Shown here: in pieces, positions 9,666-64,000 of the stretch | Position numbering within the stretch: position 1 is the first letter of the stretch | Layout of the letters: each line of letters opens with the position of its first letter | Assembly (NCBI GenBank): GCA_965226885.1 | Contig: CBDDEL010000010.1 | Span: 366,258 to 430,257, forward strand | From: Opitutales bacterium | GTDB taxonomy: Bacteria > Verrucomicrobiota > Verrucomicrobiia > Opitutales > UBA2987 | Reading direction: 5' to 3' | Length of the DNA stretch: 64,000 nucleotides | Notes under the pieces: model-generated | What the model saw: the letters and a program-made list of their open reading frames with translations, nothing else | What the model was told of the DNA's origin: nothing | The model's database searches: none | Translations under genes and position numbers: made by a program

Positions 9666-10583
9666 TCAGGCGGCTTGTTTTGGTAAAGGGCTTTGTTTTC
9701 TCGTTGCCCCCCATGGGGGGCAAATATTTTCCTCGAATTGGACTGGGCTTTGGTAACTCAGAGAGGAATGTTTGCGATATCGGTTGTAGAAGATTTCCAC
9801 GTATTCGAAGACAGTTGATCGCAGTTCGCGCTCGTCGGCAAAGTGGCGGCCTCGAATCGTGCTGGTCTTGAAGCGGCCGTAGAACGATTCCATGGCCGCG
9901 TTGTCGTAGCAGTTGCCTTGGGCGCTCATGCTCGGCTTCATGCCTAGTTCAGAGACCAGCCTCTGATAGTCGTCGCTGGCGTAGGGGCTGCCCCGATCGC
10001 TGTGATGAATAATCCCGGTGCGCAGTGTGCCGCGGGTCATGGCCGCGGCTTTGAGGGCCTTGCCAACCAGCTTCGCGTCGTTGTGGTTGGAAACGCTCCA
10101 GCCCAGCAGGCGTCGGCTGAACAGGTCCATCACCGTGGCCAAGTACATCCAACCGGCCAGGGTCCGTAGGTAGGTCGTGTCCGCCACCCAGACCTCGTCG
10201 ATATGGGTCGGCTGGCCATGCTTTTTAAGCACATTGGGGCTGTAACCATAGGGATGGTTACTGTTGGTTTTTAATGGCTTAAAGCGTTTACTCTGGGTGC
10301 TTTTGATTCCCATTTCACGCATCAGACGCAGAGCCCGGTCACGGCCGCAATCGATGCCCTCATCATCCTTCAGATGGCGGTGCATTGGCCGATGCCCATA
10401 GCGGCCCTTGGCCTCTTTGTGTACCTTCAGGATCGCCCCCTTGATTCCCTCGTCCTCGATCCGCCGGGCCGAGGGCGCTCGGTGCCTCCAGCAGTAATAG
10501 CCACTGCGACAAATCCCCATCGCCGAGCATATTTCCTCGATCTTGAAGCGCCCCTCGTTGTCTTTGACAAACTGGTACTTCAT
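9666..10583 (-). CDS. IS3 OrfB transposase
   Basis: WVADTTY, HHSDRGSPY, GNCYDNAAMESF. Confidence 0.9.
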   Translation of the reverse strand: MKYQFVKDNEGRFKIEEICSAMGICRSGYYCWRHRAPSARRIEDEGIKGAILKVHKEAKGRYGHRPMHRHLKDDEGIDCGRDRALRLMREMGIKSTQSKRFKPLKTNSNHPYGYSPNVLKKHGQPTHIDEVWVADTTYLRTLAGWMYLATVMDLFSRRLLGWSVSNHNDAKLVGKALKAAAMTRGTLRTGIIHHSDRGSPYASDDYQRLVSELGMKPSMSAQGNCYDNAAMESFYGRFKTSTIRGRHFADERELRSTVFEYVEIFYNRYRKHSSLSYQSPVQFEENICPPWGATRKQSPLPKQAA

Positions 10584-13624: not shown

Positions 13625-15130
13625 GTGTATCGAGATATGAAGCAATGGACAAGAGTGCGGCACAAAGTGCTGCGGGACAAGCAGAGCAAGCGCTCTGTAA
13701 TGCGAGAAGAGGGACTGCACTGGGAGACCCTGGGAAAGATGCTGGCCTATTCCCAGCCGCCGGGATACCGGCGCAAGAAGAGGCGAGAGCGCAAGATCGA
13801 TCCGTATGTGGGCTGGATCGAGGAGGTGCTCAAAGCGGACCGGAACGTGCCCAAGAAGCAGCGCCATACGGCCAAACGGATCTACCAGCGTTTGGGTCGG
13901 AAGAAGGGCTACCAAGGGGGCTACACGGCGGTCAAGGAGGTGGTGGCCGAGCTGCGAGCGAGGCGGCGGGAAGTGTTCGTGCCGCTGGAGCACCGCCCCG
14001 GGGAGGGACAGGTGGACTTCGGTCATGCCCTGGTGAAGGAGGCGGGGCAATTGCGTAGGCGGCCATTTTTTGCCATGAGCCTGCCCTACAGCGATGCCTT
14101 TTTCGTGCAGGTGTTCGAACGGGAGTGCACGGAGAGCTTCTGGGAGGGGCACCTGCGAGCTTTTGAGTTTTTCGGGGCGGTGCCCCGGCGCATCAGCTAT
14201 GACAACTCGAAGGTGGCGGTGGGTAAGATTATCGGTTCGCGTGAACGCAAGCTGACCGACGGGTTTCTGCAGCTACAGAGCCATTACCTGTTCGAGGAAC
14301 ACTTCTGTCTGCCCGCCCGGCCCAACGAGAAGGGCGTGGTCGAGGGGATCGTGCGTTATGCCCGGGCCAACTTCCTGGTACCGGTACCGCAGGTTCGGGA
14401 CCTGGAGGAACTCAACGCAAAGCTGTTGGAGGCATGTGAGCGGGACATGGAGCGTAAATTACGCGGGAAAAGGGCGGTGAAAAAGGAACTGCTGGCCGAG
14501 GAGCGCGCCGTCATGCTGGCGTTGCCGCCCATACCCTTTGAAGCGAGCCGCAAACGCTCGACCTGCGTCAGCAGCCTCTCGCTGGTGCGCTTCGAGTGCA
14601 ACGACTATTCGGTGCCGGTGCGCTGCGCCCACCATCCGGTGGTGGTGGAAGGGTCCTGTCGGCAGGTGGTGATCTTCTGTGGGGGCCAAGAGGTGGCCCG
14701 GCACCGCCGCATTTGGGATAAAGAGCAAGTCTCTTTCGAGCCGGTGCACTACCTGGCTTTGCTGGAGAAAAAACCGGGCGCTTTGGACTTCGCCCGCCCA
14801 CTCTCGGGCTGGCAGTTGCCGCAGTGCCTGCAGGTCCTCAGACGCCGGCTCGAAAGCCAATGCGGGGGCGAAGGCACCCGGGAGTATATCCGGGTGCTGC
14901 GGCTGTTGGAGAAACACCCCATGGCGGCCTTGCAGCAGGCCGTCGTCTCGGCCCTGCGGGAGGGGGGACTGACTCGTGAGGCCATCGCCCAGTATCTCTA
15001 TCCTCAGGAAGACTACGGGAGCAGAACCTTCCGGCTGGACGGCCATCCACACCTGCGTCACGTCCGTGTGGCCGCCCCTGACCTCGGTGCCTACAGCGAA
15101 CTGCTCAAGATTCCAGGAGGGGCTTTATGA
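13625..15130 (+). CDS. istA: IS21 transposase
   Basis: GQVDFG, FFGAVPRRISYDN, NEKGVVE. Confidence 0.92.
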   Translation: MYRDMKQWTRVRHKVLRDKQSKRSVMREEGLHWETLGKMLAYSQPPGYRRKKRRERKIDPYVGWIEEVLKADRNVPKKQRHTAKRIYQRLGRKKGYQGGYTAVKEVVAELRARRREVFVPLEHRPGEGQVDFGHALVKEAGQLRRRPFFAMSLPYSDAFFVQVFERECTESFWEGHLRAFEFFGAVPRRISYDNSKVAVGKIIGSRERKLTDGFLQLQSHYLFEEHFCLPARPNEKGVVEGIVRYARANFLVPVPQVRDLEELNAKLLEACERDMERKLRGKRAVKKELLAEERAVMLALPPIPFEASRKRSTCVSSLSLVRFECNDYSVPVRCAHHPVVVEGSCRQVVIFCGGQEVARHRRIWDKEQVSFEPVHYLALLEKKPGALDFARPLSGWQLPQCLQVLRRRLESQCGGEGTREYIRVLRLLEKHPMAALQQAVVSALREGGLTREAIAQYLYPQEDYGSRTFRLDGHPHLRHVRVAAPDLGAYSELLKIPGGAL

Positions 15131-15951
15131 AGGAAGAAAAAAACCAGCTGCTGTTACACCATCACCTCAAGAAACTGAAGTTGCCCACCATCCTGCGCGA
15201 ATGGCCGGCGGTGACCCCGAAGAAACGGATCCGCCGGCCCTGGGCACAGGCGGCAAAGCCCAGGGCGGTGGCCAGGTGCGTTTTACCGGTACCGGCGTTA
15301 CCGAGGAGCAGCACGTTTTCGCGCTGGTCGACATACTCCCCGCGCATGAGCTCTCGGATGAGCGCTTCGTTGATCGAGGGCTGCGCTTCAAAGGCGAAGC
15401 TCTCGAGGGTCTTGAGCACGGGGAAACGGGCGTTTTTGATCCGCCGCTGGGCGGCCCGCTGTTCGCGTTCAATGAGCTCCCGTTCGACCAGATGCAACAA
15501 AAAGGCGGCGTAATCGAGCCGGTCCCGGGAACAAGCCGCGGCCACCGCCCTGGGCTTTGCCGCCTGTGCCCAGGGCCGGCGGATCCGTTTCTTCGGGGTC
15601 ACCGCCCTGGTTACCCATATGCTCGAGCAACGCGACAACCACGACCTGCAGCGCTTCATGAAGCAACTCGAAAGGCTCGACCTACTCATCCTCGACGAAC
15701 TCGGTTACGTCCCTTTTTCCAAGACCGGTTCCGAACTGCTCTTCGACGTGGTCAGCCGCGCTTACGAGCGCACCAGTCTCATCGTCACCACCAACCTGCC
15801 CTTTGAGAACTGGATCGAAGTGCTCGGTTCCGAACGGCTCACCGGAGCTCTGCTGGACCGACTCACCCATCGGGTGCATATCCTCGAAGCCAACGGGCAA
15901 AGCTACCGCTTGCGCGATGCTCGACGCCGTCGCCGTGGCACAAAACAATAA
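15127..15951 (+). pseudogene. istB: IS21 ATPase gene scrambled by an internal inversion-duplication
   Basis: Against the intact copy at 21509-22276, about 15207-15549 is on the opposite strand (Walker A GNAGTGKT reads on minus). Confidence 0.9.
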
Positions 15952-17649: not shown

Positions 17650-18997
17650 CTACCGTTGTTTCTTCCCGGTCAAATCTTCCTCCCGGACGACATAGGCCCT
17701 AATCACAGGCTGAGGTCCGAGACCCCTGGTAGCATTAATAAAGGGTAGTGTATTAAGTAGGAATGGTGGCTAATTCTTGATTATATTGATGAATGAAAAG
17801 TCTCAGACAGGTTTCATGCATACTCTTAAGCTTGGAAAAGGAGAGGGTTTTGCGTGTGAAACGACCCAGTCGTTGGCGCAGGGTATTGTTCCATCGTTCC
17901 ACATGGGCCGTTTCACCGGTTTCTTTTCCCACGGATCGGTTATGAGGAAAGACTTCATCATAAGTGCTCCAAAAGTCGCTGTAGGTGGCACATCTTTTGT
18001 AGGCCCGTGGCAGACGCTCGTAAAGTTCCCGGCAACGATACCAATCCCGAGGCCCAATGGCATAGGAGAGGATTTGACGGGTGCGTCGGCAAAGAGCGAT
18101 CCAAACCCATTGGGCATCGCTCTTGCGCCCCACAAAAGACCACAGTTCGTCCAGTTCAATGACATCATGGCGGCGGGCCGCAAGAATCGTGCTTTTGAGC
18201 GGTCGCAGCGATTGTCGTTTTTTTTAACCAACTCAAAACGGTGTTGGGACTCACCCCGAAGGCGCGCTGTAAACCGCGTAGACTGCTGCGTTCCTGATAG
18301 ACTCGAAGGATCATTTCTTTTTGCTCTTCGGTGTATTTCACTGTGGGGTTTTCGCGGCTTTGTTTACCACAATCATGGCAGCGGTAGCGCTGTTTATGGT
18401 TGGGCGTCTTGCCAAATTTAATGATATTTTCACTTCCACAGTGCCGACAATTAATAATTTTAGTAACCATGCACTAAGAATAAACTGCCTAACGCTATTT
18501 GTACAGCTAAAAATACAAAATAACATTCTTTTTTTATACACTACCTAATAAAGTTATCATTAGTGTAGTCCGAAATGACAATCGTCCCGTCGCTCATCTG
18601 CGTCCAGTTGCTGTAACCGGAATCGCTCGAATAATCCATGACAACCAGGCGATCACGACGAAACTGGTCCGGGTAGCCATCCCTGGCATGCCATCTCCAA
18701 TCGATCGAATAGTCGTCCGGGTTGTTTACTTTGGCGGAGACCGATCTCCAATGCGACACAGTCTTGAGTTTGCTTCCAAACCGAACCAGGCGCGACTCAA
18801 TACCCAAAACCGACCTCTGTAACTTAAGTTGACCGTCGATATAAACCTGCATCTCCCCAGCATCGCGAACGATTCTATAACGATGCCACTGTGTTGTATC
18901 CATCTCAACACCTTCTTCGGAGGCATGTGGCGCCACTTCGTCCAACGCAGCGCCGGTAGCATCAACGGAAGAAATCTGTTGAAAACGATGAGGAAGA
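17650..18997 (-). pseudogene. C-terminal fragment of a sialidase/BNR-like protein, split by IS1-A and truncated by IS1-B
   Basis: DSGYSNWTQMSDGTIVISDY; removing 17744-18553 continues in frame NFINATRG..EEDLTGKKQR*. Product call tentative. Confidence 0.55.
17744..18545 (-). mobile_element. IS1-family element A (insA 18165-18470, insB about 17753-18175)
   Basis: GGTAGTGTAT / ATACACTACC; TSD TAATAAAG; zinc ribbon CRHC..CHDC; ELDELWSF, VERWNNTLRQ. Confidence 0.92.
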
Positions 18998-20605
18998 GGT
19001 AGTGTTAACATGACGAATGTTTGATATTGCTGTTGTATTCCCAGATGGGTAGTGTATAAAAAAAGAATGTTATTTTGTATTTTTAGCTGTACAAATAGCG
19101 TTAGGCAGTTTATTTTTAGTGCATGGTTACTAAAATTATTAATTGTCGGCACTGTGGAAGTGAAAATATCATTAAATTTGGCAAGACGCCCAACCATAAA
19201 CAGCGCTACCGCTGCCATGATTGTGGTAAACAAAGCCGCGAAAACCCCACAGTGAAATACACCGAAGAGCAAAAAGAAATGATCCTTCGAGTCTATCAGG
19301 AACGCAGCAGTCTACGCGGTTTACAGCGCGCCTTCGGGGTGAGTCCCAACACCGTTTTGAGTTGGTTAAAAAAAACGACAATCGCTGCGACCGCTCAAAA
19401 GCACGATTCTTGCGGCCCGCCGCCATGATGTCATTGAACTGGACGAACTGTGGTCTTTTGTGGGGCGCAAGAGCGATGCCCAATGGGTTTGGATCGCTCT
19501 TTGCCGACGCACCCGTCAAATCCTCTCCTATGCCATTGGGCCTCGGGATTGGTATCGTTGCCGGGAACTTTACGAGCGTCTGCCACGGGCCTACAAAAGA
19601 TGTGCCACCTACAGCGACTTTTGGAGCACTTATGATGAAGTCTTTCCTCATAACCGATCCGTGGGAAAAGAAACCGGTGAAACGGCCCATGTGGAACGAT
19701 GGAACAATACCCTGCGCCAACGACTGGGTCGTTTCACACGCAAAACCCTCTCCTTTTCCAAGCTTTTAAGAGTATGCATGAAACCTGTCTGAGACTTTTC
19801 ATTCATCAATATAATCAAGAATTAGCCACCATTCCTACTTAATACACTGCCCCCAGATGAACAAGCACAGGACGCGAAAATGCATGACCAAAGACTTCGA
19901 GAATGACAGCGTTTTACGCACATAGCGTGACAGGGACTGTCGCAAGGTATTGTTCCAGCGTTCGATATGGGCGGTTTGGCCGGATTGTTTCCCGCTGGCG
20001 CTGTTGTGAGGGAAAACCTTGTCGTAGCTTTCCCAGTAATCGCTTACGGTGGCACAGTCGCGATAGGGCTGGGCGATGTTGTGATACAACTGCCAGCACG
20101 TTTGATCGCTACGATCACCCAGAGAAAACCCGACGACCTGTCGGGTACGTCGACACAAGGCTACCCATAGCCATACCTGCCCCGAACGCTTATCGCCCCA
20201 GAATGACCACACCTCGTCCAGTTCCAGCACATCACTACACTGGCGGGCAAGCAGAGTGGACTCCAGCTTCGGCAAACTCAGGACTTTTTTTTAATCCATT
20301 CGATGACCGTCTTTGGGGCTACCCCGAAGGTACGGTAAATGGCACGCAGGCTCATCCGGTTTTGGTGCGCACGGAGCACCTGCTTGACCAGCGCCGGAGG
20401 ATGCTCACGACTTTTGGGGTGAAGCCGAAACTGATAACCACACCCCTTGCATCGATACTTCTGAACCCCTTTCGGATCCTTGCCGTGCTTGATGATGTGA
20501 TCGCTTCCGCATTGAGGACATTTTACTGTGATATGGACCATTCCCAGTTCACAACATAATCACGCTAAAAAGTACAGCTTAATCATTCAAAATGTTAACA
20601 CTACC
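18998..20605 (-). mobile_element. IS1-family element B (insA 20278-20541, insB 3' end interrupted)
   Basis: GGTAGTGTTAACAT / ATGTTAACACTACC; no TSD; matches the intact copy at 55504-56299. Confidence 0.88.
19048..19851 (+). mobile_element. IS1-family element A nested in element B
   Basis: TSD CCCAGATG; 2-bp insertion near 19764 frameshifts insB; one mismatch in right IR. Confidence 0.9.
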
Positions 20606-21335: not shown

Positions 21336-21508
21336 TGTAAACGCCGGGATGAAACCGGTACGGGGGTCGGGGTAAAACCGGTACGCTTGGAATAAGGTTT
21401 AGGTTAGTAATTGCAGGTACGTCAAGGTTTAGGGTTTGGGAGTTGGTTTTGGGGATTGGCTTGGGGTCGGTGAGGAGGCCGGAGGCCGACGAGCCGGGCC
21501 CAAGGCGT

Positions 21509-22276
21509 TTATTGTTTTGTGCCACGGCGACGGCGTCGAGCATCGCGCAAGCGGTAGCTTTGCCCGTTGGCTTCGAGGATATGCACCCGATGGGTGAGTC
21601 GGTCCAGCAGAGCTCCGGTGAGCCGTTCGGAACCGAGCACTTCGATCCAGTTCTCAAAGGGCAGGTTGGTGGTGACGATGAGACTGGTGCGCTCGTAAGC
21701 GCGGCTGACCACGTCGAAGAGCAGTTCGGAACCGGTCTTGGAAAAAGGGACGTAACCGAGTTCGTCGAGGATGAGTAGGTCGAGCCTTTCGAGTTGCTTC
21801 ATGAAGCGCTGCAGGTCGTGGTTGTCGCGTTGCTCGAGCATATGGGTAACCAGGGCGGTGACCCCGAAGAAACGGATCCGCCGGCCCTGGGCACAGGCGG
21901 CAAAGCCCAGGGCGGTGGCCAGGTGCGTTTTACCGGTACCGGCGTTACCGAGGAGCAGCACGTTTTCGCGCTGGTCGACATACTCCCCGCGCATGAGCTC
22001 TCGGATGAGCGCTTCGTTGATCGAGGGCTGCGCTTCAAAGGCGAAGCTCTCGAGGGTCTTGAGCACGGGGAAACGGGCGTTTTTGATCCGCCGCTGGGCG
22101 GCCCGCTGTTCGCGTTCAATGAGCTCCCGTTCGACCAGATGCAACAAAAAGGCGGCGTAATCGAGCCGGTCCCGGGAACAAGCCGCGGCCACCGCCGGCC
22201 ATTCGCGCAGGATGGTGGGCAACTTCAGTTTCTTGAGGTGATGGTGTAACAGCAGCTGGTTTTTTTCTTCCTTCAT
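21509..22276 (-). CDS. istB: IS21 helper ATPase
   Basis: GNAGTGKTHLA, LLILDELGY, LLDRLTH. Confidence 0.94.
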   Translation of the reverse strand: MKEEKNQLLLHHHLKKLKLPTILREWPAVAAACSRDRLDYAAFLLHLVERELIEREQRAAQRRIKNARFPVLKTLESFAFEAQPSINEALIRELMRGEYVDQRENVLLLGNAGTGKTHLATALGFAACAQGRRIRFFGVTALVTHMLEQRDNHDLQRFMKQLERLDLLILDELGYVPFSKTGSELLFDVVSRAYERTSLIVTTNLPFENWIEVLGSERLTGALLDRLTHRVHILEANGQSYRLRDARRRRRGTKQ

Positions 22277-23780
22277 AAAGCCCCTCCTGGAATCTTGAGC
22301 AGTTCGCTGTAGGCACCGAGGTCAGGGGCGGCCACACGGACGTGACGCAGGTGTGGATGGCCGTCCCCAGCCGGAAGGTTCTGCTCCCGTAGTCTTCCTG
22401 AGGATAGAGATACTGGGCGATGGCCTCACGAGTCAGTCCCCCCACCCGCAGGGCCGAGACGACGGCCTGCTGCAAGGCCGCCATGGGGTGTTTCTCCAAC
22501 AGCCGCAGCACCCGGATATACTCCCGGGTGCCTTCGCCCCCGCATTGGCTTTCGAGCCGGCGTCTGAGGACCTGCAGGCACTGCGGCAACTGCCAGCCCG
22601 AGAGTGGGCGGGCGAAGTCCAAAGCGCCCGGTTTTTTCTCCAGCAAAGCCAGGTAGTGCACCGGCTCGAAAGAGACTTGCTCTTTATCCCAAATGCGGCG
22701 GTGCCGGGCCACCTCTTGGCCCCCACAGAAGATCATCACCTGCCGACAGGACCCTTCCACCACCACCGGATGGTGGGCGCAGCGCACCGGCACCGAATAG
22801 TCGTTGCACTCGAAGCGCACCAGCGAGAGGCTGCTGACGCAGGTCGAGCGTTTGCGGCTCGCTTCAAAGGGTATGGGCGGCAACGCCAGCATGACGGCGC
22901 GCTCCTCGGCCAGCAGTTCCTTTTTCACCGCCCTTTTCCCGCGTAATTTACGCTCCATGTCCCGCTCACATGCCTCCAACAGCTTTGCGTTGAGTTCCTC
23001 CAGGTCCCGAACCTGCGGTACCGGTACCAGGAAGTTGGCCCGGGCATAACGCACGATCCCCTCGACCACGCCCTTCTCGTTGGGCCGGGCGGGCAGACAG
23101 AAGTGTTCCTCGAACAGGTAATGGCTCTGTAGCTGCAGAAACCCGTCGGTCAGCTTGCGTTCACGCGAACCGATAATCTTACCCACCGCCACCTTCGAGT
23201 TGTCATAGCTGATGCGCCGGGGCACCGCCCCGAAAAACTCAAAAGCTCGCAGGTGCCCCTCCCAGAAGCTCTCCGTGCACTCCCGTTCGAACACCTGCAC
23301 GAAAAAGGCATCGCTGTAGGGCAGGCTCATGGCAAAAAATGGCCGCCTACGCAATTGCCCCGCCTCCTTCACCAGGGCATGACCGAAGTCCACCTGTCCC
23401 TCCCCGGGGCGGTGCTCCAGCGGCACGAACACTTCCCGCCGCCTCGCTCGCAGCTCGGCCACCACCTCCTTGACCGCCGTGTAGCCCCCTTGGTAGCCCT
23501 TCTCCCGACCCAAACGCTGGTAGATCCGTTTGGCCGTATGGCGCTGCTTCTTGGGCACGTTCCGGTCCGCTTTGAGCACCTCCTCGATCCAGCCCACATA
23601 CGGATCGATCTTGCGCTCTCGCCTCTTCTTGCGCCGGTATCCCGGCGGCTGGGAATAGGCCAGCATCTTTCCCAGGGTCTCCCAGTGCAGTCCCTCTTCT
23701 CGCATTACAGAGCGCTTGCTCTGCTTGTCCCGCAGCACTTTGTGCCGCACTCTTGTCCATTGCTTCATATCTCGATACAC
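22273..23780 (-). pseudogene. istA: IS21 transposase with a 2-bp insertion near its 3' end
   Basis: CCGTCCCCAG at about 22361-22370 versus CCGTCCAG in copy 1; reads through to 554 aa. Confidence 0.85.
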
Positions 23781-23894
23781 TCCTCCTTTCTAGGATAAGC
23801 GTACCGGTTTTAAAGCGCCCTCTTTACCGTACCGGTTTTTCCCCGGCGTTTACAACCCCGCTCGCAAGCCTTCAAAAAGGAGGGCTCGGGTACG

Positions 23895-24860
23895 ATGACA
23901 TTGACACCACTTCAACCGGAGCGACCCACGGCATACCGCTTTTGCAACTGGGATCGCGATTTCGAGAACTCAAGCAGCCGCAAGGTCGATAATGCACAGT
24001 GGGTGCGAGCGTCCAACAACCACGAAAACCGCCAATATCTGACGATAGCCCGTCAGGAGAACGCAGTTGAGCTCATTGGTGCCAAGGAGTTATTGGCTCA
24101 GGCGGGATCGAAAATGCAGGAACGCGGACTTTTCGTGGATCAATCGGGGCCGTTAATCGCAGAGGACATCGCTCAAATGGTAAGAATGCCAACTGAACCG
24201 ATAGAGAGAGCCTTGGAATTTTTCTCAAATCCGTCCGTTGGATTGATCGAGAAAATCCCCTGTCCAAAGCAACTGAATCTTTCTGGTCGGCAGGGCGATG
24301 GAGTAAACACGCTTCCTGTTAATTTGCCAGGTGAAACACGCCCCGATGGGATAGTATCCCACCCAGCCGGGATAGCATCCCGCGCAGGTGGGCCAGAAAG
24401 GAAAAGAAAGAGTGCACCGGCTGGCACCGGCTCAGACTCACAAAGTTCTTCAAAATATAAAAAAACTTCAGCTTCTAATCAAAAGCCATTCCAAAAGCCC
24501 ACCCAGCAGGAGTGGTTGGCTTATATGGCTTCGATCCTGGTACCCTCTCAAGCGGCTGAGAAGGCGTTCCACCACTACGAGGCTGTGGGCTGGACGGTGG
24601 GCCGCAATAACCGCCCCATGATGGATTGGAAGGCGGCGGCGCAGACTATCAAATGCAATCACATCAAAGAGGGTGGGACGCTTCTGGGCGATGGCCCTAC
24701 CCATAAGGAGCCGGATGGCTGGCGGGAGTGGTATGTGAAGACATACCCGCCAGACAAGTACCCCGTACAACCTCGCTACGAAACCAGAACATGGGCGGAT
24801 TTGCCGGATTTTATGCGGGATGAGTTTTTTGCAAAGCAGAAAAAGGAGGATGCAGCGTGA
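23895..24860 (+). CDS. Phage-type replication initiator-like protein (5' end possibly clipped by IS21)
   Basis: KPT..EW..AEKAFHHYEAVGW.VGR..PMMDWKAAA C-terminal motif typical of phage replisome organisers; overlaps dnaB. Confidence 0.65.
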   Translation: MTLTPLQPERPTAYRFCNWDRDFENSSSRKVDNAQWVRASNNHENRQYLTIARQENAVELIGAKELLAQAGSKMQERGLFVDQSGPLIAEDIAQMVRMPTEPIERALEFFSNPSVGLIEKIPCPKQLNLSGRQGDGVNTLPVNLPGETRPDGIVSHPAGIASRAGGPERKRKSAPAGTGSDSQSSSKYKKTSASNQKPFQKPTQQEWLAYMASILVPSQAAEKAFHHYEAVGWTVGRNNRPMMDWKAAAQTIKCNHIKEGGTLLGDGPTHKEPDGWREWYVKTYPPDKYPVQPRYETRTWADLPDFMRDEFFAKQKKEDAA

Positions 24861-26203
24861 TGGCCGGAATAGATGGGACGGTTGTGCCGTCCAACGTTGA
24901 CGCAGAGGCGGGCTTGCTTGGATGCTGCCTGCTTGAGGAGGGGGAGGAGGTGCTCGCTAAATGCATGGTGGCGCGGCTAACTCCCGATGATTTTTTCAAA
25001 CCGGGCCACCAGATGATTTTCAAGGCTCTTTGCAGCCTCCACCAAAAAAACGTCCCGCCAGATGAAATTACCCTCGCTGATGAATTGCAGAGAATGGGGC
25101 AATTAGAGGAAGCCGGGGGATACCCTGAGATGGCCAATCTTACCAGCCAAATCGATACTACGGCCCATTCCAAACACTGGCTGGACATTGTGAAGGAAAA
25201 GGCCACCAGGCGCAGCATCATCAAGGCAGGCACCATACTTGTTGAAAATGCCAGGCAAAACCATGAGGATATTCAATCCGTCCTGGACAGCGCCGAAAAA
25301 ACCATATTCGCCCTTTCGAGGGATCAGGTTTCAAACTCGGCCCGGCACGTATCCAGCGTTGTCGATGACTTCAAGCAATCGCTGGCGCAGGAGGCGAATG
25401 TGCTTCATGGGCTCCACACTGGCTTCCTTGATCTGGATACAAAGACTTCCGGCCTCCACGCCGGGGAAATGAACGTCCTGGCCGCCCGGACATCAATCGG
25501 CAAAACAGCATTGGCTCTAAATATCGCCGCGAATGTGGTATTGCCCAAATCAGGAGGAAACGGTCAAGGGGTTTTGATATTCTCACTGGAAATGTCCAGC
25601 GAGCAACTCATCCAGCGAATGGTTTGCAGCCGTGCATCAATCAACCTGGCAAAGTTGCGTCAAGGGTATCTCAAACAAGAGGATCGGGAGAAACTGGATT
25701 ATACAGCCGATGAAATCCATGCCGCGCCCCTTTGGATTGATGATACGGCGTCGATGAACATTCTGGAACTGAGGGCTAAGGCTAGGCGCATGGTCGCCCA
25801 GCATAGCGAGATCAGCCTAATTATTCTCGACTACTTACAGTTGGTAAGCGGAACGGATCGACGTGTTTCCCGCGAGCAGCAGGTATCAGAAATCTCCGGC
25901 GGACTCAAGGCTTTGGCCAAGGAATTGAAGATGCCGGTTCTTGTTCTCAGCCAATTGAACCGATCCTTAGAAACAAACAGCCGCCAACCGCGCCTGTCTG
26001 ATCTCCGAGAGTCCGGGGCCATCGAGCAGGATGCCGACGTTGTGCTGCTCATGTCGAAACCCGCCAATCAAGGAGAGGCATACGCGGCTGTAGAAACGGT
26101 TGATCTGAACATTGCCAAACAGCGAAATGGGCCTGTGGGCCATGTGCGCCTGGCATTTCAACCGCAATTCACCCGGTTCGAGAATTTCCAATCAGAGGGA
26201 TAG
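24857..26203 (+). CDS. dnaB: Replicative DNA helicase, phage-associated
   Basis: LAARTSIGKT, IFSLEMS, LDYLQL, LSQLNR, LSDLRESGAIEQDAD, AKQRNGP. Confidence 0.95.
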   Translation: MMAGIDGTVVPSNVDAEAGLLGCCLLEEGEEVLAKCMVARLTPDDFFKPGHQMIFKALCSLHQKNVPPDEITLADELQRMGQLEEAGGYPEMANLTSQIDTTAHSKHWLDIVKEKATRRSIIKAGTILVENARQNHEDIQSVLDSAEKTIFALSRDQVSNSARHVSSVVDDFKQSLAQEANVLHGLHTGFLDLDTKTSGLHAGEMNVLAARTSIGKTALALNIAANVVLPKSGGNGQGVLIFSLEMSSEQLIQRMVCSRASINLAKLRQGYLKQEDREKLDYTADEIHAAPLWIDDTASMNILELRAKARRMVAQHSEISLIILDYLQLVSGTDRRVSREQQVSEISGGLKALAKELKMPVLVLSQLNRSLETNSRQPRLSDLRESGAIEQDADVVLLMSKPANQGEAYAAVETVDLNIAKQRNGPVGHVRLAFQPQFTRFENFQSEG

Positions 26204-26205
26204 CA

Positions 26206-26562
26206 TTGATAATTATGCATGAATTAGAAAAAACGACGCAAGCCGGTGGGATCGTTCCACTGCCAAAAGTGATCCGTAAACAGGGGTTTACCCTGACTCA
26301 GACATGGCGGAAGGGGACCGTAGCTATTTTTGAACAGATGAAACCCGGATGGGCCAAGCCGGGATATGAGGTAATTATCATTCGGGTAGGGAAAGGCCAT
26401 TATTTGGGCGACCAAAAGGATACCCTAATGGAGCGGTACCCTACCAACAATGAATGGGGCAAGTATGGCTGGACCCATCCCAATGAAGAAAGTGCCAAAA
26501 TTGCGGCCAACAATGCTTATCGGGAAGAATTGCTAAATCGGGAGGGCAAGAGTGCTGCGTAA
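26206..26562 (+). CDS. Hypothetical phage-like protein
   Basis: Directly follows dnaB; ERYPTNNEWGKYGWT segment. Confidence 0.65.
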   Translation: MIIMHELEKTTQAGGIVPLPKVIRKQGFTLTQTWRKGTVAIFEQMKPGWAKPGYEVIIIRVGKGHYLGDQKDTLMERYPTNNEWGKYGWTHPNEESAKIAANNAYREELLNREGKSAA

Positions 26563-26736
26563 AGGTATCAGGAAGGTCTTACTGTACGTCCGAAAACGGG
26601 AGGTTGGGGGTAAATAGGTATCAGAGTGCCACTTTTTCAGAAATTCGATGTTTTCAGCATGAATTTCACATTCATACCTGTGGACATGGATTCAGAATTA
26701 GAACCAGTACGTTTTCTTCAAATTACATACAATATT

Positions 26737-26799
26737 GGGGGCGAAGGATTTCGATGGCGCAGCAGTGACCGGATGGCGGTTCGATTCCGCCCGCCTCCA
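26737..26799 (+). ncRNA. tmRNA tRNA-like-domain-only RNA (mini-tmRNA)
   Basis: Acceptor GGGGGCG/CGCCTCC+A with G3:U70; stemless D-loop AAGGATTTCGA; short helix 2 capped by AGCA; GAT linker; T-arm GGCGG-TTCGATT-CCGCC; no tag ORF. Confidence 0.78.
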
Positions 26800-26818
26800 G
26801 CAAATCAAAGGAAAAAAC

Positions 26819-27022
26819 ATGAGCAAATGGAAAAAAGTCAAGGAACGCCTGGAAGACCTTCTCGACGCACCTGATGCAAAGATAACGAAGGGCAAAGCGG
26901 CCAAAAGGCTGGGGATGTCCCACCGTGCCCTCCATTTCTACCTGTGGAATGGAACATCGACTCCAAACTACGACCTTGGATGCGAATTTCTGAGGCTGGC
27001 CAAATCGCTTGAGGACAAATAA
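26819..27022 (+). CDS. Small Cro/XRE-like HTH protein (67 aa)
   Basis: AAAGGA RBS; ITKGKAAKRLGMSHRALHFYL..GTSTP HTH pattern. Confidence 0.7.
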   Translation: MSKWKKVKERLEDLLDAPDAKITKGKAAKRLGMSHRALHFYLWNGTSTPNYDLGCEFLRLAKSLEDK

Positions 27023-27231
27023 TATAAACAACTGGACCAACTGGTGGACCAAGGCCCAGCCCAATAGAAAGGAGGGAAACCATGACTGATATTATCACAA
27101 TATCCCTTTTGATGTACCGGGAAGGAAGGAACCGAATCCATCCTAAACCACATGTTGAATCTAATTTATTATGTAAAATTTTACAAATAACAATTCAAAC
27201 AATTTAAGGGAGATAAAACTATATGAATAAT

Positions 27232-28561
27232 CACTAGTGTCCAGTTAAGCGGCCAGTCTAAAGTCGTATTTCGTTGATGATGTGTTTGTTGAGTAGCCAC
27301 ATGGATGTGACGCATTTGAAGTTAGCTGGCGCTTTCCGCACCCTTTTTGAGACTGGGCAGCATGAACGAAGGCCGCCTTGCATTCACGCAGGCGATGGAT
27401 TTGCTCCATCGCGAACAGTTCGAACGCTGCGTTAGTCTTTATCCCATGCCAAGAACCAGTCGTAGTTTCAGTGCCCGTGATCAGTTCTTGAGCATGGCCT
27501 TTGCGCAAATGACATTCCGTGAGAGTTTGCGTGACATCGAGGCGTGTCTGCGGGGAAGTCCTCACTTGTATGCGATGGGAATCCGGGGCAATGTGACACG
27601 CACGAACTTGGCCTACGCCAACGAGCATCGCAACTGGCGCCTTTACGAAGCATTGGCTCAAGTGCTCATCGCCAAGGCGCGCCGTTTGTATGCCCAAGAC
27701 GCGATTGGATTGAATGTAGACGAGATGGTTTATGCCCTGGATGCCTCGACCATAGACCTGTGCCTGTCGTTGTTTTCGTGGGCAACATTTCGCCGCACCA
27801 AGGCGGCCATCAAACTGCATACGATGATGGACTTGCGTGGCTCCATCCCTATATTCATCAGTATTACAGACGCAAGCGTGCATGACGTGAACATCCTTGA
27901 TGAACTGGCTTTTGAACCCGCAAGCATTTACGTAATGGATCGTGGTTACGTCGATTTTCAGCGGCTCTTTCGCATCCATTTGGCTGCTGCCTTCTTCGTC
28001 ACCCGCGCCAAAAGCAATATGAGTTTTACGTTAGTGCTTCCCAACCCGTGGACCGATCCAGCGGAATCAGTTGCGACCAGATCATCGGATTGAAAGTCGC
28101 CAAAAGCAAAAGCCAATACCCCGGCAAGCTCCGGCGCATTCGCTACCGCGATGGCGCAACTGGCCAGAGGCTGGTCTTCCTCACCAACAACTTCACCTTG
28201 CCCGCCTTGACTATCGCGGCCATTTACAAAAGCCGCTGGCGCATTGAGCTGTTCTGCTGGCGCATTGAGCTGTTCTTTAAGTGGATCAAGCAAAACCTCC
28301 GCATCAAGGCTTTCTACGGCACCACCGAAAACGCCGTGAAGACCCAAATTTGGGTAGCCATATGCGTTTATCTCATGGTCGCCTGTTTGAAAAAAGTGCA
28401 TGGAGTCACTGAAAGTCTGAGTCGGATTCTGCAAGTTTTGAGTGTGAACGTCTTTCAAAAAGATCCTGTATATCAACTACTTGCAAAGTTCGAAACAAGA
28501 AAGCCAAACTTAGCATTACACAACCAGTTGATGCTCAAGGGCTTTTAACTGGACACTAGTG
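27232..28561 (+). mobile_element. IS4-family element
   Basis: 17-bp IRs CACTAGTGTCCAGTTAA; 9-bp TSD ATGAATAAT. Confidence 0.92.
27362..28548 (+). pseudogene. IS4 transposase, frameshifted near 28030-28050, with a 21-bp duplication
   Basis: LDASTIDL, KLH, VMDRGY in one frame; YKSRWRIELFFKWIKQ in the next. Confidence 0.88.
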
Positions 28562-29509
28562 ATGAATAATATTTGATGTGATTTTAGATATCATTGGTAT
28601 ACAATGGGTTGAGAATTATCGCAAATTATTTAATATTCCGATTTATACCGATTTAAATGCCCTTCGATCGCGAGTACCCTAGCCCGGATATTTCGTAAAA
28701 AAAGTATCGTTGATATGCTTAACTGCTGATATACAGCAGGATAGATCAATAATTAAAGCAATATCAGCGATGACAAAAGGTAAACAATTAAAGCTACAGT
28801 TGACAAGGGTAAAAGGCCGCCGTGTGCGGGTTGATTTCAAGGGCGGAGAGGTTACTTCGGATGCCGGACTGCTTTTGATCCGGGAAGTGGATCGGCAGTT
28901 GGGCTTGACCGAACGAGCGGCCCGACAGTTAGTGGACAAACGGCAGAAGGGCAAAGTACGCCATGAGGTATTGGGGATGCTGCGGCAGCGCGTTTACGGG
29001 CTGGTGGCGGGCTATGAGGATTTGAACGACTTTGATACCCTGCGCCACGATCCATTGTTGCAAACGGTAACGGGGCGCATTGAAACGTTGGCCAGCGCGC
29101 CGACTTTGTGTCGTTTTGAAAACGGGCAGGATCGGCGGGCGGCCTTTGCGGTAAACGAGCTGTTGGTCGAACAGTTCATGGGCTCCTTTGCCGAGGAACC
29201 CGAAGAGATCATCCTGGACTTTGACGCCACCGACAATCCGGTGCACGGGCTCCAGGAGGGACGTTTTTTCCACGGTTATTATGATCATTACTGTTTTCTG
29301 CCGCTATATGTTTTTTGCGGTGATCAGCTGCTGGTGGCCTACCTGCGGCCGAGCAAGATCGATGCCAGCAAGCATGCCGGGGCCATCCTCAAATTGCTGG
29401 TTAAACGGATTCGCCAAAGCTGGCCCCGTACGCGGATTATTTGGCGCGCCGACAGTGGATTTTGTCGAGACCGGATACCCTCTTGGTGCGACCGCAACGA
29501 AGTTAGTTA

Positions 29510-35616: not shown

Positions 35617-36418
35617 GGTAGTGTATTAAGTAGGAATGGTGGCTAATTCTTGATTATATTGATGAATGAAAAGTCTCAGACAGGTTTCATGCATACTCTT
35701 AAGCTTGGAAAAGGAGAGGGTTTTGCGTGTGAAACGACCCAGTCGTTGGCGCAGGGTATTGTTCCATCGTTCCACATGGGCCGTTTCACCGGTTTCTTTT
35801 CCCACGGATCGGTTATGAGGAAAGACTTCATCATAAGTGCTCCAAAAGTCGCTGTAGGTGGCACATCTTTTGTAGGCCCGTGGCAGACGCTCGTAAAGTT
35901 CCCGGCAACGATACCAATCCCGAGGCCCAATGGCATAGGAGAGGATTTGACGGGTGCGTCGGCAAAGAGCGATCCAAACCCATTGGGCATCGCTCTTGCG
36001 CCCCACAAAAGACCACAGTTCGTCCAGTTCAATGACATCATGGCGGCGGGCCGCAAGAATCGTGCTTTTGAGCGGTCGCAGCGATTGTCGTTTTTTTTAA
36101 CCAACTCAAAACGGTGTTGGGACTCACCCCGAAGGCGCGCTGTAAACCGCGTAGACTGCTGCGTTCCTGATAGACTCGAAGGATCATTTCTTTTTGCTCT
36201 TCGGTGTATTTCACTGTGGGGTTTTCGCGGCTTTGTTTACCACAATCATGGCAGCGGTAGCGCTGTTTATGGTTGGGCGTCTTGCCAAATTTAATGATAT
36301 TTTCACTTCCACAGTGCCGACAATTAATAATTTTAGTAACCATGCACTAAGAATAAACTGCCTAACGCTATTTGTACAGCTAAAAATACAAAATAACATT
36401 CTTTTTTTATACACTACC
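35617..36418 (-). mobile_element. IS1-family element A
   Basis: Matches 17744-18545; TSD AATAATAA. Confidence 0.93.
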
Positions 36419-56939: not shown

Positions 56940-57270
56940 CGGAAATGTATTATCTGGAAGCGTCGGCCGAATTTGCCCGGCGGTTCATTATAGTCTTCGG
57001 AAATTTTCTCAGGATTCGTCTTATCGCGTAACTCGAACGGCTCTGGAATCCTCTGCACAAGAGCTTCGCACCATGCCATGGCCTGGGTTTGTTGAATGAT
57101 GGGATTATAAGCATCGCCATAAGCGCGAATCAAAAAAGTGTCCGAACGCGTTTGCACAAACGGCGCTATACTCGAAAGAATGTCGGCCTGGGTAAGAAAT
57201 GAAGGCGCGTTGAAAGGAATGCGGTTGTCGTTAAGCGCGGAGTCGTAATTAAAGCCATCGACAGTGTTAA
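56915..57270 (-). pseudogene. C-terminus of a Verrucomicrobia-type large hypothetical protein, truncated by IS1380-A
   Basis: TQADILSSIAPFVQTRSDTFLIRAYG..WCEALVQR..FGRRFQIIHFRW; family recalled from memory, not searched. Confidence 0.65.
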
Positions 57271-58017
57271 CCCGGATATTTCATGAAGGGTAAAGTCTGG
57301 CTCGTTATTGCTATTGGAGATGGATTTCTTTGTATTTTGAGCAGATCGTCTTGATTTTTAGGTGTTTTTCAGGGTGTAGAGACACTGCCCCCTTTCCCCC
57401 ATTGGTTCGGTAGTGCCGGGGGCAGCACCAATGCACCCTTTAGGTTGGCACCAATCGGCGGGCCGCATGGTTGAAAAGACTGGCCCAAGGATAACTCTCA
57501 CTTAGGTGAAAGTGAATCGTTCGGGTGTTGCGCACGATGACCGCTCCGATCTTGATTAATTTGAGCCGCAGGGTGTGGCATTGAGCCCGCGCCCACTTCG
57601 TCCCTTTTAAGGCTAACCGGCGCATGGCTTCCATCAAGGTGTAGGCCAGCGCCGACAAGAGCAATCGCCACTGATTGGCCCACCATTGATGGGCGCTGGT
57701 GCGCTCGCTGAACAATTGCATCTGTTCCTTGATTCGGTTCTCCATTTCACCGCGGCCACAGTATACCTTGTCGTAAAGCTCCTGGGGATCGCCCGGCAGG
57801 TTCGTCACCACGAAGCGCGGGTTGGACCCCTGTGCGGTGTGTTCGGCTTTATGGATGACCAACCGCAGCCATCGCCACGAATCGGCAGCATAGACGAAGT
57901 CCTGGAATAACCGCTGTTTTTTACCCCTTAGTTCGAACCATTCTTTGGCCTGCTTTTGCAACTGCTGGGCGTCTTGCTGCAAGCGTGCATTGCGAGCCAT
58001 CCCCACGATGTAACTAA
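57271..58017 (-). mobile_element. IS1380-A 3' fragment
   Basis: Right IR after TTAA; cut at an internal CTAA by the next copy. Confidence 0.9.
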
Positions 58018-59456
58018 CCCGGATATTTCGTAAAAAAAGTATCGTTGATATGCTTAACTGCTGATATTTCGTAAAAAAAGTATCGTTGATATGCTTAACT
58101 GCTGATATACAGCAGGATAGATCAATAATTAAAGCAATATCAGCGATGACAAAAGGTAAACAATTAAAGCTACAGTTGACAAGGGTAAAAGGCCGCCGTG
58201 TGCGGGTTGATTTCAAGGGCGGAGAGGTTACTTCGGATGCCGGACTGCTTTTGATCCGGGAAGTGGATCGGCAGTTGGGCTTGACCGAACGAGCGGCCCG
58301 ACAGTTAGTGGACAAACGGCAGAAGGGCAAAGTACGCCATGAGGTATTGGGGATGCTGCGGCAGCGCGTTTACGGGCTGGTGGCGGGCTATGAGGATTTG
58401 AACGACTTTGATACCCTGCGCCACGATCCATTGTTGCAAACGGTAACGGGGCGCATTGAAACGTTGGCCAGCGCGCCGACTTTGTGTCGTTTTGAAAACG
58501 GGCAGGATCGGCGGGCGGCCTTTGCGGTAAACGAGCTGTTGGTCGAACAGTTCATGGGCTCCTTTGCCGAGGAACCCGAAGAGATCATCCTGGACTTTGA
58601 CGCCACCGACAATCCGGTGCACGGGCTCCAGGAGGGACGTTTTTTCCACGGTTATTATGATCATTACTGTTTTCTGCCGCTATATGTTTTTTGCGGTGAT
58701 CAGCTGCTGGTGGCCTACCTGCGGCCGAGCAAGATCGATGCCAGCAAGCATGCCGGGGCCATCCTCAAATTGCTGGTTAAACGGATTCGCCAAAGCTGGC
58801 CCCGTAAGCGGATTATTTGGCGCGCCGACAGTGGATTTTGTCGAGACCGGATACTCTCTTGGTGCGACCGCAACGAAGTTAGTTACATCGTGGGGATGGC
58901 TCGCAATGCACGCTTGCAGCAAGACGCCCAGCAGTTGCAAAAGCAGGCCAAAGAATGGTTCGAACTAAGGGGTAAAAAACAACGGTTATTCCAGGACTTC
59001 GTCTATGCTGCCGATTCGTGGCGATGGCTGCGGTTGGTCATCCATAAAGCCGAACACACCGCACAGGGGTCCAACCCGCGCTTCGTGGTGACGAACCTGC
59101 CGGGCGATCCCCAGGAGCTTTACGACAAGGTATACTGTGGCCGCGGTGAAATGGAGAACCGAATCAAGGAACAGATGCAATTGTTCAGCGAGCGCACCAG
59201 CGCCCATCAATGGTGGGCCAATCAGTGGCGATTGCTCTTGTCGGCGCTGGCCTACACCTTGATGGAAGCCATGCGCCGGTTAGCCTTAAAAGGGACGAAG
59301 TGGGCGCGGGCCCAATGCCACACCCTGCGGCTCAAATTAATCAAGATCGGAGCGGTCATCGTGCGCAACACCCGAACGATTCACTTTCACCTAAGTGAGA
59401 GTTATCCTTGGGCCAGTCTTTTCAACCATGCGGCCCGCCGATTGGTGCCAACCTAA
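58018..59456 (+). mobile_element. IS1380-A with intact transposase (58086-59456), interrupted at its stop codon
   Basis: Left IR plus a 41-bp duplication; next IR starts right after CTAA. Confidence 0.9.
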
Positions 59457-60283
59457 CCCGGATATTTCGTAAAAAAAGTATCGTTGATATGCTTAACTGC
59501 TGATATACAGCAGGATAGATCAATAATTAAAGCAATATCAGCGATGACAAAAGGTAAACAATTAAAGCTACAGTTGACAAGGGTAAAAGGCCGCCGTGTG
59601 CGGGTTGATTTCAAGGGCGGAGAGGTTACTTCGGATGCCGGACTGCTTTTGATCCGGGAAGTGGATCGGCAGTTGGGCTTGACCGAACGAGCGGCCCGAC
59701 AGTTAGTGGACAAACGGCAGAAGGGCAAAGTACGCCATGAGGTATTGGGGATGCTGCGGCAGCGCGTTTACGGGCTGGTGGCGGGCTATGAGGATTTGAA
59801 CGACTTTGATACCCTGCGCCACGATCCATTGTTGCAAACGGTAACGGGGCGCATTGAAACGTTGGCCAGCGCGCCGACTTTGTGTCGTTTTGAAAACGGG
59901 CAGGATCGGCGGGCGGCCTTTGCGGTAAACGAGCTGTTGGTCGAACAGTTCATGGGCTCCTTTGCCGAGGAACCCGAAGAGATCATCCTGGACTTTGACG
60001 CCACCGACAATCCGGTGCACGGGCTCCAGGAGGGACGTTTTTTCCACGGTTATTATGATCATTACTGTTTTCTGCCGCTATATGTTTTTTGCGGTGATCA
60101 GCTGCTGGTGGCCTACCTGCGGCCGAGCAAGATCGATGCCAGCAAGCATGCCGGGGCCATCCTCAAATTGCTGGTTAAACGGATTCGCCAAAGCTGGCCC
60201 CGTACGCGGATTATTTGGCGCGCCGACAGTGGATTTTGTCGAGACCGGATACTCTCTTGGTGCGACCGCAACGAAGTTAGTTA

Positions 60284-63200: not shown

Positions 63201-63854
63201 GCCTCCAAACAGGTGCCGTCGATCAGGCAAATGGTGGTGTCAATCGGCTTGTCCAATCCCACCTGCCGGGCCAGAAGGGCATCGCCCACCACCTCAGTCA
63301 AGGTCCGGTGCAAGGCCCTCAACTGCTCTTCGCTGAAAAACTTCGAGGCCCGCTCCAGGGTGCTTTTGGAGATGCCCCTGATGCCATCGATCTGCCGGAC
63401 ACGGCAAAAGTCGGCCAACAGATCGCTGCTGCCCAGAGCCCGCGACAAATGCCGAAACGAAATCCCTCCGAGCAGACGGCCCAGCGTATCCATGCGCAGT
63501 GCCTTGATGGCAAAACTGGCCCGCTGCCGCCGGGCCTTTAGACCCATTGGCGGCCACCCCTCCAAGGCCAGCTCAATGGCCTGCGATTCCACCTCCGAGT
63601 CGATCAGCAGCCGATCGATTCGATCAATGGTGGCGCGGAAGTTATCGTAATCGAGGCACCGGTCGACCACAGTTAAAGCTGGACGCAGGAGGCATTGGAT
63701 GGCTATATTTTTCATAGAAAGGGCTATATTGATTTTCGCTAACTCAATTATAGAACCCTTTTTTGGCCGGATCGAGCAAAAACTTGCTCTTTCCGGCTCT
63801 TTTTATCAACGTCATCCAGTTGACTATAAAATCTTTATATTTTTGGACAGCCTC
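60284..63854 (-). mobile_element. ISA copy (transposase 62234-63715) with IS1380-A at its stop codon
   Basis: Both IRs present; CTAG duplicated at 60479-60482 and 62234-62237. Confidence 0.9.
60483..62233 (-). mobile_element. IS1380-A complete copy (60667-62233, transposase 60836-62206) plus an extra right end (60483-60666)
   Basis: Two tandem right ends joined at TTAG, the element's own stop codon. Confidence 0.9.
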
Positions 63855-64000
63855 TAGTTACATCGTGGGGATGGCTCGCAATGCACGCTTGCAGCAAGAC
63901 GCCCAGCAGTTGCAAAAGCAGGCCAAAGAATGGTTCGAACTAAGGGGTAAAACAACGGTTATTCAGGACTTCGTCTATGCTGCCGATTCGTGGCGATGGC

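Follow-up and report, generated by a model that had tools for sequence, protein, structure and literature searches.

Bacteria rescue stalled ribosomes and control the quality of translation chiefly through trans-translation, which is also a drug target. Here we describe a transfer-messenger RNA (tmRNA) gene that consists of the tRNA-like domain (TLD) only, at positions 26737-26799 of a stretch of 64,000 nucleotides from an Opitutales bacterium (assembly GCA_965226885.1, contig CBDDEL010000010.1, positions 366,258 to 430,257 of the forward strand; the whole stretch is referred to as the window, and the gene as the mini-tmRNA). A comparable gene is found in mycobacteriophage DS6A, which is listed as having a 'TLD only' tmRNA (PMC4131195). 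The same source states that tmRNA is strongly inhibited by a similar molecule, chargeable or not, perhaps via titration of SmpB, and the DS6A form is said to have inhibited endogenous tmRNA in E. coli (PMC11915505); both papers cite Mao et al. 2009 for DS6A. In addition, tmRNAs of ~65 bp without a coding sequence (CDS) occur in plastids of the Mallomonadaceae, and message-less organellar tmRNAs co-occur with SmpB (PMC11915505). An earlier reading of the locus from its letters alone (the original prediction) knew mRNA-less forms only from protist mitochondria, a restriction that does not hold given that DS6A and the CDS-less plastid tmRNAs are in print (PMC4131195, PMC11915505).

The DS6A gene (tmRNA Website tmID 11587) resembles the window gene in being a one-piece molecule with acceptor stem, D-loop, helix 2a hairpin and T-arm and no tag frame, and both are recovered by the same models. 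It is flanked by gp33 and the DNA pol III gene (JN698994 28478-28557), and the window gene is likewise carried by a mobile element, beside replication genes. The two differ in size, as the DS6A gene has 80 nt and a longer central hairpin while the window gene has 63 nt and a 4-nt loop, as well as in setting: DS6A is an intact phage of an actinobacterial host, whereas the window holds a fragment bounded by insertion sequences (IS), without virion genes, in an uncultured Opitutales bacterium. Inhibition is reported for the DS6A type, while the window gene is known from its sequence alone. Bacterial ssrA (RF00023) has the same G3:U70 pair, discriminator A73, D-loop motif, GAC/GAU linker and T-arm, compared to which the window gene is ~290 nt shorter, the missing parts being the pseudoknots, the resume codon and the tag frame. 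The message-less organellar tmRNAs (jakobid and oomycete mitochondria; Mallomonadaceae plastids) share with it the length of ~65 nt and the retained alanine identity, but each is the only tmRNA of its organelle and is thought to rescue ribosomes, whereas the window gene is an extra one, on mobile DNA, beside a complete ssrA. Full-length and two-piece phage tmRNAs (OM43 phage Melnitz, PMC9004378; cluster C mycobacteriophages, PMC4131195) are likewise element-borne members of the tmRNA family, but they keep the tag frame and are found by ARAGORN, neither of which is true of the window gene. Finally, engineered RNAs made of the TLD only (Shimizu and Ueda 2006, as cited in PMC3895274) are reported to take over the peptide on the ribosome; these are laboratory constructs derived from host tmRNA, whereas the window gene is natural.

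By its sequence, the window gene belongs to an already published kind, the DS6A type, in a very compact form. Sequestration of SmpB is the one functional idea of the original prediction that has a published precedent. On a slight balance of probability, we favour the reading that the locus is a TLD-only tmRNA of the DS6A kind in the IS-shattered remnant of a replication module, and that it competes with the host tmRNA for SmpB.

The identification of positions 26737-26799 as a genuine TLD-only, tag-less tmRNA gene is confirmed at the level of sequence, and the sequence and fold described in the original prediction match the bases exactly. The acceptor pairs are G1:C72, G2:C71, G3:U70 and four more, and the identity set of alanyl-tRNA synthetase (AlaRS), namely G1:C72, G2:C71, G3:U70, G4:C69 and A73, is complete. 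The pseudoknots and tag reading frame of tmRNA are replaced by the helix 2a hairpin, which has 6 pairs (two of them G-U wobbles), a bulged A26768 and a 4-nt loop; there is no resume codon, pseudoknot or tag reading frame in the 63 nt. The locus has no D-arm or anticodon arm either, and neither ARAGORN nor Rfam called a tRNA (RF00005) there.

Searching the whole genome with RF00023 in global mode, we obtained 137.4 bits for the host ssrA on contig C15, 40.9 bits (E 1.3e-14) for the window locus and 49.3 bits for a second copy on contig C14. The gathering score is 47 bits, which places the window copy below and the C14 paralog above it. Once the middle of the model is deleted, the mini-tmRNA aligns with RF00023 from end to end. 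A covariance model (R2) built from 36 other sequences, with the window gene and its paralog excluded, gives 56.9 bits for the window gene (E 4.3e-11, whole model), 59.8 bits for the paralog and 45.5 bits for the DS6A locus (45.8 bits with model R1), compared to 18.1 and 14.6 bits for the two true tRNAs of the window. ARAGORN made no tmRNA or tag call at the window locus, and Rfam cmscan at gathering thresholds found no match there; in a permissive Rfam scan, the 3' half of the locus aligns to tmRNA. The missing calls are due to the blindness of these tools to such genes and not to absence of the gene. ARAGORN made no tmRNA call on any of the 52 related loci in viral contigs described below and miscalled three of them (L019, L024 and L035) as over-long tRNAs, the miscalls including a 91-nt 'tRNA-Glu' and an 83-nt 'tRNA-Arg'. 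In phage annotations, TLD-only genes are likely to go unseen or to carry a wrong label.

Relatives were collected with a motif scan that fixes the GGGG start, TTCGA, the T-loop core and the TCCA end, and leaves 14-34 free bases in the middle. A sequence was said to have the full layout if no more than one of the 7 acceptor pairs was missing, all 5 T-stem pairs were formed and a hairpin of 4 or more pairs came right after the D-loop. Viral contigs yielded 52 loci with 36 unique sequences, 34 of which have the full layout. Metagenome contigs yielded at least 117 loci and at least 90 unique sequences, with the full layout in 75 of 90 among the matches listed, and the genomes of 185,579 species (one each) yielded 22 loci with 21 unique sequences, 8 of them with the full layout. 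Of the 34 full-layout viral sequences, 25 have GAC as the linker and 4 have GAT; the phage-type GAC is found in only 2 of the species-genome sequences. The AlaRS identity set is strictly kept across the family.

In an alignment of 38 sequences, the 15 specified pairs are 97.2% paired, with a covariation of 0.637 versus 0.122 when shuffled (0 of 500 shuffles reach the observed value) and at most 0.125 when the partners are slid. Ten of the 15 pairs vary on both sides, while the five invariant ones are those fixed by the motif. A further 80 distinct sequences from metagenomes, independent of this set, are 98.8% paired with a covariation of 0.668, in an alignment that was fitted to the model, which favours structure. 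Pairing in the acceptor helix is 96.6-98.7% (4 of 7 pairs vary on both sides) and in the T-stem 99.8-100% (3 of 5), and all of the first three pairs of helix 2a vary on both sides. The score of the window gene is on a par with those of the phage sequences. The original prediction's account of a compact, TLD-only tmRNA-like RNA on a mobile element is borne out in its RNA part by the fold, the R2 score and the family, and the homologs near phage dnaB and the covariation that it had suggested looking for were both found, with two loci (L014 and L017) following dnaB. Our literature search returned no description of a wide phage family of TLD-only tmRNAs, though the supplements of tmRNA database papers, which it did not cover, may contain further viral entries without a CDS.

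The mini-tmRNA has every sequence feature that tmRNA uses for charging by AlaRS and for presenting the SmpB-binding elbow, and has no message. The host genome encodes one SmpB (on contig C15) and one enzyme of the CCA-adding type. Under the reading favoured here, the mini-tmRNA would be transcribed together with the dnaB gene array on the same strand, or immediately after it, and would be excised in the manner of a tRNA, with RNase P cutting at G1 and the 3' side trimmed back to A73, and CCA might then be added by the host CCA-adding enzyme. The elbow of D-loop and T-loop, together with helix 2a, would present the surface that SmpB binds on tmRNA. The molecule would thereby compete with the host tmRNA for the single SmpB and, if charged, also for AlaRS and EF-Tu, the predicted outcome being less trans-translation and less ssrA tagging while the element is active. 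That inhibition of the DS6A type is reported to need no charging (PMC4131195) fits a copy without an encoded CCA, and CCA is also absent in 13 of the 34 full-layout viral relatives.

Several points weigh against this reading. The inhibition experiment is known at second hand, via the papers that cite it. A scan for promoters and terminators near the gene found no promoter-like (sigma-70-like) or terminator-like site. The mini-tmRNA encodes GCA at the place of CCA, though CCA is encoded by every tRNA gene of this genome (49 of 49) and by its ssrA; this makes charging uncertain. A related element on contig C17 has no RNA gene, and the carrier element in the window is broken by IS on both sides, such that the gene may be an inactive passenger. 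The argument from conservation between the genomic copies (see below) is based on two copies, and the region upstream of the gene is also well kept. Lastly, the minimum-energy fold of the gene sequence by itself does not surpass that of shuffles (z -0.55) and has a different central helix. As the fold of the lone sequence is uninformative, the central helix rests on homology, on the covariation in the family and on the single base change between the paralogs.

The question of charging bears on a different role, namely rescue without a tag: following CCA addition and alanylation, the RNA would enter stalled ribosomes with SmpB and EF-Tu, accept the nascent chain and release it untagged, as there is no resume codon. 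This would spare the truncated proteins of the element itself and free ribosomes. The AlaRS identity set, intact here and strictly kept in the family, speaks for it, as does the presence of a CCA-adding-type enzyme in the host. Among full-layout sequences, CCA is encoded in 21 of 34 from viral contigs and, among the matches listed, in 46 of 75 from metagenomes (1 of 8 from species genomes), an indication that charging is important in this family. Furthermore, peptidyl transfer to a TLD-only RNA has been reported in vitro (PMC3895274), and the co-occurrence of SmpB with the organellar message-less forms agrees with such a role. However, the window copy does not encode CCA, inhibition is reported whether or not the molecule is chargeable, and the peptidyl-TLD would still need an exit route from the ribosome. 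We regard tag-less rescue as quite unlikely.

The mini-tmRNA was also compared to the host ssrA, which has 358 nt and encodes the tag GENEYALAA. The two differ at 8 of the last 32 positions and in the T-stem sequence, and acceptor pair 6:67 is C-G in the mini-tmRNA versus U-A in ssrA, which is a compensatory change. The differing ends and the compensatory pair rule out an origin by deletion within the host ssrA. A scar of recombination, in which the ends of ssrA were joined by a deletion or an attachment (att) remnant was left by an island that integrates into ssrA, has one observation in its favour. In the C17 element, 15 nt stand in place of ~475 nt of the window (26323-26798), and homology restarts exactly at A73, which makes the 3' end of the gene a boundary of recombination or of an indel. 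An att scar, however, would be expected to keep only the 3' part of ssrA, near-identical to the host gene and repeated at the far end of an island. In the mini-tmRNA both halves are present and pair with each other, the ends are unlike those of the host ssrA, and a search of the genome for a repeat of the 3' end of the gene found none, the sole other near match having 3 mismatches in 24. The same architecture also recurs, with covariation, in more than 100 unrelated sequences. The scar explanation is largely refuted and extremely improbable. The original prediction had likewise argued against an ordinary att scar, and had named ends identical to those of the host ssrA without TLD-only homologs as the finding that would speak for a relic; the ends differ and homologs exist.

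The non-repeated island that carries the gene spans 23855-27215 (3,361 bases, from BLAST of the window against its own genome) and has IS on both sides. The second copy of the 66 nt, on contig C14, is 98.5% identical (65/66) and sits in an 833-base fragment that has 86.8% identity to the island and is cut by an IS21 copy. The sole difference between the paralogs, T26755 versus C, turns a U-G pair into C-G and preserves the pairing. By segment, the copies agree at 65/66 positions in the RNA gene, 107/112 in the 112 nt upstream, 55/62 in the spacer before it and 161/204 in the downstream open reading frame (ORF). The RNA gene is thus the best preserved, which from two copies gives a hint of possible selection on it. 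None of the 5 public runs that contain the stretch is listed as an RNA run; the DNA contigs of four of them show these two paralog variants only.

These data also bear on whether the gene, formerly functional in an active phage or plasmid-like element, is now a silent leftover in an element destroyed by IS. The small size of the island between its two IS is in keeping with this, as are the still shorter C14 fragment, whose upstream ORF is interrupted by the IS21 copy, the lack of a promoter-like site and the absence of CCA from the gene in a genome that otherwise always encodes it. Against it, there is no sign of decay: the 7 acceptor and 5 T-stem pairs are intact, the score is that of phage sequences and the one paralog difference is compensatory. 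We regard a dead passenger as unlikely, while granting it some weight. On a bolder view, TLD-only tmRNAs would form a large class, missed by standard tools, of RNAs by which mobile elements shut down or divert bacterial ribosome rescue, and the two intact, selectively kept copies in this genome would be a domesticated regulator of SmpB availability, i.e. a resident brake and not a phage weapon; this is a speculation that we consider distinctly unlikely.

If the favoured reading is true, the mini-tmRNA, as a natural small RNA in competition for SmpB, would provide a ready-made inhibitor of trans-translation, and would mark a conflict between mobile elements and the host over translation control. 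DS6A, as the single published case, looked like an oddity, whereas the same design recurs, with clear covariation, in over 100 distinct sequences from phage and environmental contigs, often within replication or tRNA gene clusters. This breadth of the family is more interesting than the window copy itself, whose added points are modest: its compact form with the 4-nt loop, the lack of an encoded CCA, and the presence of two copies in IS-wrecked chromosomal elements.

Table 1. Features of the mini-tmRNA gene and of the island that carries it (window coordinates).
Feature	Position	Strand	Evidence or remarks
Mini-tmRNA (TLD-only) gene, G1 to discriminator A73, 63 nt	26737..26799	+	Sequence; RF00023 global 40.9 bits; R2 56.9 bits
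Acceptor stem, 5' strand	26737..26743	+	7/7 pairs with 26792-26798, including G3:U70
Stemless tmRNA-type D-loop, 11 nt, TTCGA at its end	26744..26754	+	Aligns with the D-loop in the family alignment and in both models, R1 and R2
Helix 2a hairpin	26755..26771	+	26755-26760 pairs with 26765-26771; loop 26761-26764
GAT linker, helix 2a to T-arm	26772..26774	+	Sequence
T-arm, 5-bp stem (26775-26779 with 26787-26791), 7-nt loop	26775..26791	+	Sequence
Acceptor stem, 3' strand, and discriminator A73	26792..26799	+	Sequence; A73 is 26799
GCA trailer at the place of CCA	26800..26802	+	Backbone common with the related C17 element, which has no RNA gene
Upstream spacer, candidate leader or promoter	26625..26736	+	107/112 identical between the two genomic copies
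IS21-type insertion sequence, left bound	21336..23854	-	Pfam IstB, Mu-transposase C; multi-copy, 99.8% identity
321-aa ORF	23895..24860	+	PF09681 phage replisome organiser N-domain E 0.0054, below cut-off; phrog_15768, function unknown
dnaB-type replicative helicase, 448 aa, extra genome copy	24857..26203	+	Pfam DnaB_C, DnaB; PHROG 19; TIGR00665 441 bits
118-aa ORF directly upstream of the RNA gene	26206..26562	+	No Pfam, PHROGs or NCBIfam match
67-aa ORF, 16 nt past the trailer	26819..27022	+	No Pfam, PHROGs or NCBIfam match
1.35-kb insertion sequence, right bound	27216..28572	-	Multi-copy in genome

The genes around the mini-tmRNA are listed in Table 1. The original prediction had called the RNA phage-borne, a claim that its surroundings do not support: the carrier is a 3.4-kb, IS-bounded fragment of a replication module (dnaB), and a scan of 44 ORFs of the window found no capsid, tail, terminase, lysis, virion or packaging gene. 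The same account took the 67-aa ORF to be HTH-like, for which no family match was obtained. Among viral contigs, the 118-aa protein has one weak match (35% over 55 residues) and the 321-aa protein none. A second dnaB-like stretch, with ~70% DNA identity, is found on contig C17.

The C17 element (L085, G000:C17:212000-231999; 10421-10577 and 14953-15224) is homologous to the island in the beginning of the 118-aa ORF and in the small ORF. Since homology restarts at A73, the GCA trailer belongs to the common backbone. The homolog of the 67-aa ORF starts at the same ATG, which places the RNA gene outside that reading frame. The C17 element also carries a Toprim/DUF3631 primase, and an IS21 + IS4 composite with a target-site duplication is present in its junction.

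The surroundings of the TLD-only genes in phage were examined in 29 representative loci. Replication or recombination genes adjoin the RNA gene in at least 10 of the 29; it is near terminase or portal genes in 5 and near lysis genes in 3. It directly follows a dnaB array, as in the window, in 2 (L014 301-2051, minus strand; L017 648-2063, plus strand), whose small ORFs are unrelated to those of the window. In L014, a 115-aa ORF separates the dnaB-like helicase from the RNA gene. A dnaB-like helicase with 31% identity to that of the window precedes the RNA gene in nine near-identical viral contigs and one relative, and true tRNA genes lie within 2 kb in 10 of the 52 viral loci.

This arrangement raises the question of whether the tRNA-like shape serves some other end, either as a processing signal at which RNase P or RNase Z would split the transcript of the dnaB array, or as a small structured RNA that binds or decoys host nucleases (e.g. 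RNase R) or defence enzymes. The window gene does lie within a same-strand array, 16 nt before the next start codon, its homologs abut the upstream ORF of the dnaB array in L014 and L017, and a phage protein is reported to use t(m)RNA fragments that bind RNase R (PMC11662646). A processing signal, however, needs no G3:U70, tmRNA-type D-loop or GAC/GAU linker, all of which are kept in more than 100 distinct sequences, and a decoy for anticodon nucleases is impossible as there is no anticodon loop. We consider a role of this sort very improbable.

Within the family of TLD-only genes, an apparently marine subfamily of 75 nt has an 8-bp helix and a conserved, A/U-rich inner loop of 12 nt (L012, L020, L025, L037, L048, L056 and L057); many metagenome loci belong to it as well (e.g. 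L087, L099, L108 and L171). A subfamily of 77 nt (L088, L098, L122 and L153) has a nested second hairpin. The scan of species genomes also returned tRNA-like genes of 68-70 nt that have G3:U70 but lack a D-arm, and whose central hairpin is closed by an anticodon-like loop of 7 nt. These come from L063, L072 and L080 (metagenome-assembled genomes (MAGs) of Eremiobacterota/Vulcanimicrobiota), L066 (a Flavobacterium MAG), L076 and L082 (Balneolaceae), and L079, and are different in kind from the phage genes.

Among 50,697 phage records, BLAST with the 66 nt found no match over 80% of their length, and BLAST of the island against 72,556 plasmids matched in dnaB segments only. Pseudomonas phage SM1 and Erwinia phage UCB24 were rejected as carriers of TLD-only genes, the matching regions being ordinary or permuted tmRNA and tRNA. 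Within the taxonomic family of the host, none of 8 other genomes has a match. Within the order, 4 of 150 other sampled genomes matched; three of the matches are the 3' ends of real ssrA genes and the fourth is a TLD-like gene in genome G092 (L210, G092:C3:672414-672483). This gene has 70 nt and the same acceptor stem sequence as the mini-tmRNA, with a different inner stem, no TTCGA and no CCA, and is located just downstream of a DinG-like helicase, far from the real ssrA.

The IS load of the region is extreme, at window positions 11600-39000 and 57200-63900, with several IS nested in one another. The repeats in the window include many near-identical 1.5-kb DDE_Tnp_1_4 copies, IS21 (IstA/IstB), a 1.6-kb IS4-like element and IS3-like elements, as well as a 0.8-kb repeat at 17740-18545, 19045-19852 and 35617-36418. 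The IS at the right bound of the island has eight near-full-length copies (1,318-1,352 bases) and one split copy elsewhere in the genome, at 97.8-99.9% identity, and the IS elements of the window also crowd contig C14 at 30-127 kb.

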